From assembly GCF_053078305.1 (NCBI RefSeq), contig NZ_CP166879.1: DNA of 64,000 nucleotides. One strand, 5' to 3'. The notes below the pieces were generated by a model that was given only the letters and a program-made list of their open reading frames with translations, ran no database searches and was not told the DNA's origin. Positions within the stretch are counted from its first letter, which is position 1. Each line of letters starts with the position of its first letter. Below are positions 42,917-43,590 of this stretch, piece by piece. The position numbers and the translations under genes are program-made.

Positions 42917-43293
42917 GAAGCTGACCAGACAGTCGCCGCTTCGTCGTCGTCCTCTTCGGGGGAGACGGGCGGAGGGGAGGAAAGTCCGGGCTCCATAGGG
43001 CAGGGTGCCAGGTAACGCCTGGGGGGGAAACCCACGACCAGTGCAACAGAGAGCAAACCGCCGATGGCCCGCGCAAGCGGGATCAGGTAAGGGTGAAAGG
43101 GTGCGGTAAGAGCGCACCGCGCGGCTGGTAACAGTCCGTGGCACGGTAAACTCCACCCGGAGCAAGGCCAAATAGGGGTTCATAAGGTACGGCCCGTACT
43201 GAACCCGGGTAGGCTGCTTGAGCCAGTGAGCGATTGCTGGCCTAGATGAATGACTGTCCACGACAGAACCCGGCTTATCGGTCAGTTTCACCT
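42917..43293 (+). ncRNA. rnpB: RNase P RNA (M1 RNA), about 377 nt
   Basis: Sequence recognised from GAAGCTGACCAGACAGTCGCCGCTTCGTCGTCG through CGGTCAGTTTCACCT. Confidence 0.95.
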
Positions 43294-43590
43294 GATTTAC
43301 GTAAAAACCCGCTTCGGCGGGTTTTTGCTTTTGGAGGGGCAGAAAGATGAATGACTGTCCACGACACTATACCCAAAAGAAAGCGGCTTATCGGTCAGTT
43401 TCACCTGATTTACGTAAAAACCCGCTTCGGCGGTTTTTTGCTTTTGGAGGGGCAGAAAGATGAATGACTGTCCACGACACTATACCCAAAAGAAAGCGGC
43501 TTATCGGTCAGTTTTACCTGATTTAACGAAAACCCGCCAGCGTAAACTGGCGGGTTTTTGCTTTTGGTGCACAGGGTAAGATGAATAAAT
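43244..43590 (+). repeat. tandem repeats (about 101 to 113 bp units, three copies) at and beyond the rnpB 3' end, each with a terminator-like hairpin
   Basis: Units start at about 43244, 43345 and 43458; each contains cggcttatcggtcagtttcacctgatttacgtaaaaacccgcttcggcgggtttttgcttttgg or a close variant. Confidence 0.85.

Follow-up and report, generated by a model that had tools for sequence, protein, structure and literature searches.

What is the tandem repeat that begins inside the 3' end of the gene for RNase P RNA in Escherichia coli, and why should copies of the end of an essential RNA gene be lined up behind it? The question is raised by a stretch of 64,000 nucleotides from contig NZ_CP166879.1 (assembly GCF_053078305.1), the whole of which is called the window here and from whose first nucleotide all coordinates are counted. 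The answer that we favor, with a probability of about 80%, is that the array is the long-known rnpB 3' repeat, that its extra units are disabled duplicates of the gene end carrying back-up terminators, and that its copy number shifts by recombination.

Structure and Identity of the Array

In the window, rnpB, which encodes the class A RNase P RNA (M1 RNA), lies at 42917–43293 on the plus strand (Rfam RF00010, 318.6 bits, E = 1.3e-104, full model 1–367), and E. coli RefSeq records annotate the gene as rnpB. A consensus scan places a promoter-like site, GTGACA-17-TATACT (10 of 12 matches), at 42881–42909 on the same strand, just upstream of the Rfam start at 42917, and this position fits a putative rnpB promoter. 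The gene order garK-rnpB-(array)-yhaC-yhaB-tdcR is as in E. coli K-12, and the array itself is without any annotation in RefSeq.

Each unit restarts at nucleotide 329 of M1 RNA, the first one beginning 49 nt inside the gene. Unit 1 (43245–43345, plus strand, 101 bp) consists of the last 49 nt of rnpB, with the 3' strand of helix P4 (GAACCCGG), followed by the 3' trailer, the terminator T1 and a spacer, and the true gene end within it reads …GACAGAACCCGGCTTATCGGTCAGTTTCACCT. Unit 2 (43346–43458, plus strand, 113 bp) has an rnpB-derived head, a 17-nt replacement (43367–43383), the att core, a tail, a weakened terminator T2 and a spacer, while unit 3 (43459–43579, plus strand, 121 bp) has the same head and insert (43480–43496), a long-type terminator T3 and a diverged spacer. 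The GAACC of unit 1, the real gene end, is replaced by CTATACCCAAAAGAAAG in units 2 and 3. A degenerate fourth head, GATGAATAAATATCTACGG (43580–43598, plus strand), closes the array and is present even in single-unit strains (L004 and L007). The 12-bp core CTTATCGGTCAG lies inside rnpB proper at 43274–43285, with identical copies at 43387–43398 and 43500–43511, all on the plus strand.

Tandem Repeats Finder reports one array at 43271–43537 (period 113, 2.4 copies, 96% matches, score 497), and a repeat search finds the heads TAGATGAATGACTGTCCACG at 43243, 43344 and 43457 and, in degenerate form, at 43578, which puts them 101, 113 and 121 apart. A 32-nt unit-specific probe has two matches in the 64-kb window, both in the array (units 2 and 3), against 0.00 expected by chance. 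The first-pass annotation had described head-to-tail copies of about 113 bp starting inside the 3' end of M1 RNA; the three copies are real, but their lengths are not uniform.

The array lies 3' of rnpB, restarts inside the gene end, has a period of about 113 bp and carries the K-12 sequence. It is the tandem repeat that has long been known to follow rnpB in E. coli, and we take it to be the repeat of Reed and Altman (1983), who reportedly described 3' repeats of rnpB with terminator-like structures and small open reading frames (ORFs), roughly 3.5 repeats in number. That repeat reportedly shares with the window the locus, the 113-bp period, the restart inside the 3' end of M1 RNA, the terminator-like hairpins and the small ORFs, and the K-12 locus, with four heads of which the last is REP-interrupted, fits the reported number of repeats. 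The window strain differs: it has three units, the last with a hairpin of the long type, and is free of a REP-like insert. Directly compared, the K-12 locus aligns with the window unit for unit, with few substitutions and one extra unit, and a REP-like insert of about 170 bp (L001:3275–3445), which the window does not have, interrupts its last hairpin. An insert of this kind and size (palindromes GCCGGATGCGGCG… and GTAGGCCTGATAAGCG…) is also found in the last-unit hairpin of many other strains, among them L003, L006, L008, L010 and L011.

Terminator Hairpins

That the RNase P RNA gene is followed by reiterated terminators had been noticed at first reading, and every unit indeed carries a G+C-rich hairpin followed by a T-run. 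T1 (43303–43334, plus strand) is a perfect 24-nt palindrome, AAAAACCCGCTTCGGCGGGTTTTT, followed by GCTTTTGG, with a folding energy of −22.4 kcal/mol (z = −3.6). T2 (43416–43447, plus strand) consists of AAAAACCCGCTTCGGCGGTTTTTT and GCTTTTGG (−15.7 kcal/mol, z = −1.6), and T3 (43527–43570, plus strand), found in a terminator scan, has a 14-bp stem, CGAAAACCCGCCAG and CTGGCGGGTTTTTG, followed by CTTTTGGTGC (−26.6 kcal/mol, z = −4.8). Each leads into TTTTTGCTTTT, and the G+C-rich stem-loop and T/U tract of an intrinsic (Rho-independent) terminator are present in all three. The hairpin sequence that had been quoted for every copy is exact in unit 1 only, although a hairpin with a T-run does stand in each unit, and the third copy is diverged as stated, the 14-bp stem of unit 3 being its mark. 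In unit 2 the hairpin reads ...GGCGGTTTTTT, in which a G>T change creates a stem mismatch and weakens the energy from that of T1 to that of T2 (hairpin alone, −18.0 for T1 vs −11.3 for T2).

The rnpB precursor presumably ends about 36 nt past the mature end, within the T-run of T1, and T1 is the terminator of the rnpB primary transcript. As "rnpBT1" it is among the natural intrinsic terminators that have been characterized experimentally (PMC3643576), and the published termination measurements cover T1 only, T2 and T3 being predicted terminators. T1 and T3 fold well on the minus strand too (T3, −25.9 kcal/mol vs −26.6 on the plus strand, z about −5), and to judge from this folding T3, and T1 as well, may also terminate the convergent yhaC transcript.

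Copy Number among E. coli Strains

A 78-nt probe across the inter-unit junction was counted in 5,426 complete E. coli genomes. The junction, which indicates at least two units, is present in 3,896 of them (72%) and absent from 28%. The junctions total 8,531; a genome has 2 at the median and 8 at most, corresponding to a median of three units among the positives and up to about nine units. Among 60 evenly spaced genomes, 1, 2, 3 and 4 junctions occur in 21, 12, 24 and 3, respectively. In the loci that were read directly there are one unit (L004, L007), two units (L005, L006), three (the window, L002, L003), four (K-12) or five (L008, L010), and the 821-bp query spans about 560 to 990 bp across complete genomes. 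The strain-variable copy number that the first-pass annotation had proposed is thus confirmed by comparison with other E. coli genomes, at 1 to about 9 units, and the window's three units are ordinary for the species. Every K-12-labelled assembly in the sample has 3 junctions, which suggests that copy number changes little within a lineage and that the array is resolved in complete assemblies. The extra units are dispensable, since the junction is absent from more than a quarter of E. coli genomes and 23 of 33 assessable Enterobacterales species among the matches listed are without a second complete unit.

Arrays in Other Enterobacterales and the Question of Constraint

A scan of a genome collection with the rnpB 33-mer GATGAATGACTGTCCACGACAGAACCCGGCTTA gave at least 120 loci, in Gammaproteobacteria and also in a few Betaproteobacteria, Neisseriaceae among them; this taxonomic survey is a sample, and Salmonella and Klebsiella are absent from the loci listed. 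The 33-mer is identical in lineages as distant as Marinobacter, Alcanivorax, Methylococcaceae and Neisseriaceae, among others. Arrays were called by combining a unit profile with a species-agnostic test for a second copy of the genome's own rnpB 3' end. Two or more complete units are present in 10 of the 33 assessable Enterobacterales species among the matches listed, namely Enterobacter sp. Bisph1, Enterobacter sp. Ag1, Citrobacter youngae, Enterobacteriaceae bacterium RIT691, Cedecea, Pantoea sp. IMH, Pantoea sp. Mb-10, Erwinia persicina, Pectobacterium betavasculorum and the E. coli-labelled strain SCPM-O-B-8794. Most Enterobacterales species among these matches have one unit. A partial second head occurs at three further loci (E. 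albertii, Brenneria and a MAG with REP-like sequence), and no array was found at the 81 loci from other orders (other Proteobacteria) among the matches listed.

In every array found, the P4 strand is intact in unit 1 only, being broken in all extra units by a homologous insert, GCTnTnCnnnAAAGAAAGCGG. Among the matches listed (at least 120 loci) there is no second intact copy of the P4-containing 33-mer. The parts of the extra units differ widely in between-genus identity, which is 1.00 for CTGTCCAC, 0.94 for the core CGGCTTAnCGGTCAG, 0.65 for the insert, 0.40 for the 3' tail and 0.24 for the spacer. The insert is conserved across three bacterial families and is without a template in the functional gene, so that the extra unit must be of a single old origin or have spread horizontally, and does not evolve freely. 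Private variants common to the units of one genome indicate concerted evolution. The CTGTCCAC block, on the 3' strand of helix P2 (window 43355–43362 and 43468–43475), is invariant in 27 of 27 extra units from three families in an alignment of nine genera, the adjacent head GATGAATGA being only 73% conserved in the same units, and the units of Erwinia and Pantoea Mb-10 begin at or near this block. A role as terminator does not account for the invariance of CTGTCCAC or for the conservation of the insert.

The hairpins were compared by folding each unit and by counting substitutions within genomes, since MAFFT and RNAalifold applied to all units handled the variable-length hairpins poorly and returned only 12 pairs. 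A strong hairpin with a T-run behind it is present in nearly all units of all genera, even though sequence, length and even hairpin type vary, and differing hairpin types inside one array all stay strong. Stem changes were counted between hairpins of the same length within a genome, with duplicates removed. Pairing is kept by 16 single changes, most of which lead to or from G·U, and by one double compensatory change (A-U to G-C, in RIT691); with one repair, these stand vs four breaks, a bias to preserved structure with a binomial P of 9e-6 if 35% of neutral changes preserve pairing. This count supports the maintenance of the hairpins in extra units, and gene conversion from unit 1 could explain part of the conservation. 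Selection on each individual hairpin is not strict, because T2 of the window and some units of other strains, such as units 2–3 of strain WAT, are weakened.

These observations bear on the possibility that the extra units are neutral passengers without a function of their own, their similarity being due to gene conversion and unequal crossing-over alone. Much of the variation would agree with it: copy number varies freely, the junction is missing from 28% of the E. coli genomes, most Enterobacterales species among the matches listed have only the one unit, and hairpins are damaged in the window and in strain WAT or, as in the last unit of K-12, hold a REP-like element. We nevertheless regard it as a possible but not a probable account, since an insert lacking any template in the functional gene shows 65% identity between three families, where the spacer shows 24%, the stem substitutions are strongly biased to preserved structure, and hairpins of different types within one array are all strong.

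Integrative Islets at rnpB

In NZ_CM194533.1 the match to the window breaks off within the 3' end of rnpB, and beyond this point a tyrosine integrase of 486 aa is encoded. The islet of about 7.5 kb (L009:2866–4598, L011:426–8040) encodes this integrase, a YagK/YfjJ protein, an invertase-like recombinase, a second flagellin and a phase-1 flagellin repressor. The insert matches the flk genomic islet, at whose ends the integrase Orf486 recombines direct repeats (PMC3378880). Islet junctions were read in L011, L107, L019 and L116. They have the form …CCCGGCTTATCGGTCAG|CTTCAACTTC… and …CCTGACTTATCGGTCAG|TTTCACCTGATTTACG…, which identifies the core common to attL and attR as CTTATCGGTCAG, the same 12 bp that are present in every unit. 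On integration the islet replaces the last 8 nt of M1 RNA with slightly different ones, so that the gene ends in GGTCAG|CTTCAACT instead of TTTCACCT, and displaces the native terminator. The flk islet resembles the islands that have att sites at the 3' ends of tRNA and tmRNA genes, in that its tyrosine integrase acts on the 3' end of a gene for a stable RNA, for which the element brings a substitute, and in that direct core repeats flank the element; the difference is that its target is RNase P RNA.

The islet is found in 19 of the 5,426 complete E. coli genomes (0.35%), in all 19 in rnpB proper, and an islet in an extra unit is found in none of the 5,426, though extra units lie downstream. 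In Cedecea sulfonylureivorans (L107:4563–7640) attL is in unit 2 and attR about 3 kb downstream, with ends homologous to those of the E. coli islet, and in Enterobacter sp. Bisph1 (L019:1473–1620) an islet junction is in unit 4. An integrase remnant adjoins rnpB proper in Enterobacter sp. MGH 24 (L116), and a tblastn search of all loci with the Orf486 integrase matches only the E. coli islet and this remnant. The junctions of Cedecea and Bisph1 lead into PAAR-like cargo without an intact integrase, and these islets therefore look decayed. No islet is present in the window.

Could the array then be owed to site-specific recombination, its units being islet relics, or landing pads that spare the end and the terminator of an essential gene? 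Besides the core shared by all units and both islet ends, and the Cedecea and Bisph1 islets whose junctions lie in extra units, it may be said for this that several arrays end exactly at the core and that the rnpB-like stretch in the right arm of the islet, as read from the sequences, starts at AGATG, as the units do. The view that units are direct scars of islets was rejected. Integration duplicates only the 12-bp core, far less than the 113-bp units of the array, and the islet arm is without the unit-specific insert; the islets thus seem to use the array in some genera and do not explain its origin. In addition, the E. coli islets all lie in rnpB proper, in spite of the extra units downstream, and are rare, whereas arrays are common, and an origin of the array in site-specific recombination is accordingly judged unlikely.

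RNA and Peptide Products of the Units

An array of comparable design follows the tyrT operon, where 178-bp units restart with the end of the tRNA gene and are the source of rtT RNA and tpr. In both cases a tandem array stands behind a stable-RNA gene, each unit opens with the 3' end of that gene, the context is highly transcribed and non-mRNA, and small ORFs are present. Termination at tyrT is Rho-dependent, whereas the rnpB array has an intrinsic terminator in each unit. The tyrT region encodes rtT RNA (rttR) and tpr (bioRxiv 10.1101/2024.07.17.603846), a documented RNA and an annotated small protein, while for the rnpB units any such product is hypothetical. The likeness to tandem fail-safe terminators such as rrnB T1-T2 lies in hairpin and U-tract terminators placed in series after a strongly expressed stable-RNA gene; at rnpB, however, the terminators are reiterated along with a partial copy of the gene, as components of a polymorphic repeat.

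By analogy with rtT RNA, which comes from the repeats downstream of tyrT, the units might yield a stable or regulatory RNA released from read-through transcripts. Each unit ends, as small RNAs do at their 3' ends, in a hairpin and a U-tract, and the extra units show no variation in CTGTCCAC and GGTCAG, which are the 3' strands of P2 and P1 and through which a unit RNA could conceivably pair with the 5' end of M1 RNA. However, the consensus scan finds no promoter-like site inside the units, and in the Rfam search of the array only rnpB reaches the gathering score, the permissive matches of 13–25 bits being to terminator ends of unrelated models and to no curated RNA family beyond them. RNAalifold on the extra units finds no conserved structure beyond the terminator and a weak invariant stem. 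An RNA product of this sort seems to us quite improbable.

Still less credible is the proposal that the units encode small basic peptides. It has some appeal in E. coli, where a 38-aa ORF spans each unit with GGAGG 8 nt upstream and an ATGA overlap with the next ORF, and where Reed and Altman are said to have noted ORFs with ribosome-binding sites in the repeats. In the window the 38-aa ORF (43347–43463, plus strand) runs across unit 2, preceded by GGAGG, and its stop overlaps the ATG of the next unit (ATGA), where the next ORF in the series, of 39 aa, begins (43460–43579, plus strand). In Enterobacter Ag1, Cedecea, Enterobacter Bisph1, Pantoea IMH and Pectobacterium, however, a stop closes the frame after 9 codons, and GGAGG is confined to E. 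coli. The tallied differences between E. coli units are non-synonymous, the ORFs have no Pfam match, and RefSeq annotates no CDS there. With neither frame nor GGAGG conserved among relatives, peptide-coding ORFs were rejected, and we judge the ORFs of the units to be non-coding on these comparative grounds.

Downstream of the array and convergent with rnpB lies yhaC (43633–44821, minus strand), which is split into ORFs of 305 and 63 aa by one extra T, a run of 7 T at 43911–43917 vs 6 in the near-identical strain L002. The frameshift may reflect a genuine pseudogene, or else an error in sequencing the homopolymer. The window differs from L002 by two further substitutions, at about 43841 and 44756. 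In L004 (NZ_CP024138.1; L004:1914–2480) yhaC and yhaB are absent, and the stretch from the single-unit end of rnpB to tdcR holds only short pseudogene fragments; the two genes are absent altogether in some E. coli strains, and in an islet-bearing strain an IS30 element is inserted in yhaC (L011:8507–10918).

Finally, although short-read assemblers can miscount repeats with a 113-bp period, it is hardly conceivable that the array or its copy number in the window is an assembly artefact, for an independent complete genome has the same 821 bp with 99.9% identity, as many as 152 records match at 99% or more, arrays occur in thousands of complete genomes, and the three window units differ mutually and are hence anchored.

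Proposed Origin and Function

The explanation to which we return, that of disabled gene-end duplicates with back-up terminators, would run as follows. An ancient duplication would have copied the last 49 nt or so of rnpB together with the intrinsic terminator and spacer. The extra copies would then have gained an insertion of about 12 nt and substitutions that destroyed the 3' strand of P4 in the catalytic core, which leaves only unit 1 as part of a working RNase P RNA. Transcription from the rnpB promoter would terminate at T1 and the precursor would be trimmed back to the mature end at 43293, as is established for rnpB. The extra terminators would probably serve as back-up, bidirectional stops for rnpB read-through and for convergent yhaC transcription, a role suggested by the hairpins themselves; with a further terminator in each extra unit, read-through from the highly expressed rnpB would meet a series of stops. 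The length of the array would shift by unequal homologous recombination or slippage across the roughly 96 bp of uninterrupted identity between neighboring units. To the left of the insert only 21 bp of homology remain, and exchanges should therefore rarely touch the gene, which would be shielded from conversion. As every unit contains the 12-bp islet core, the array would also offer extra attachment sites.

A more ambitious reading, which we put forward tentatively and which may well prove wrong, joins these elements into an ancient and selectively maintained Enterobacterales rnpB module, in which a disabled copy of the 3' end, with P4 broken by the conserved insert, and a working terminator together form a fail-safe bidirectional insulator and provide harmless attachment sites for islets.

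Significance

For the window itself the practical value of the result is small: one should not take the repeats for small genes or for some new element. The copy number of the array is a lineage marker, which short-read assemblies could miscount. The breadth of the module and its apparent constraint across Enterobacterales, together with its apparent use by islets that target rnpB, might be new. A disabled copy of a stable-RNA gene's own end is kept beside that gene across three bacterial families, a pattern relevant to the insulation of essential RNA genes and to the way in which integrative elements use the ends of RNA genes harmlessly.
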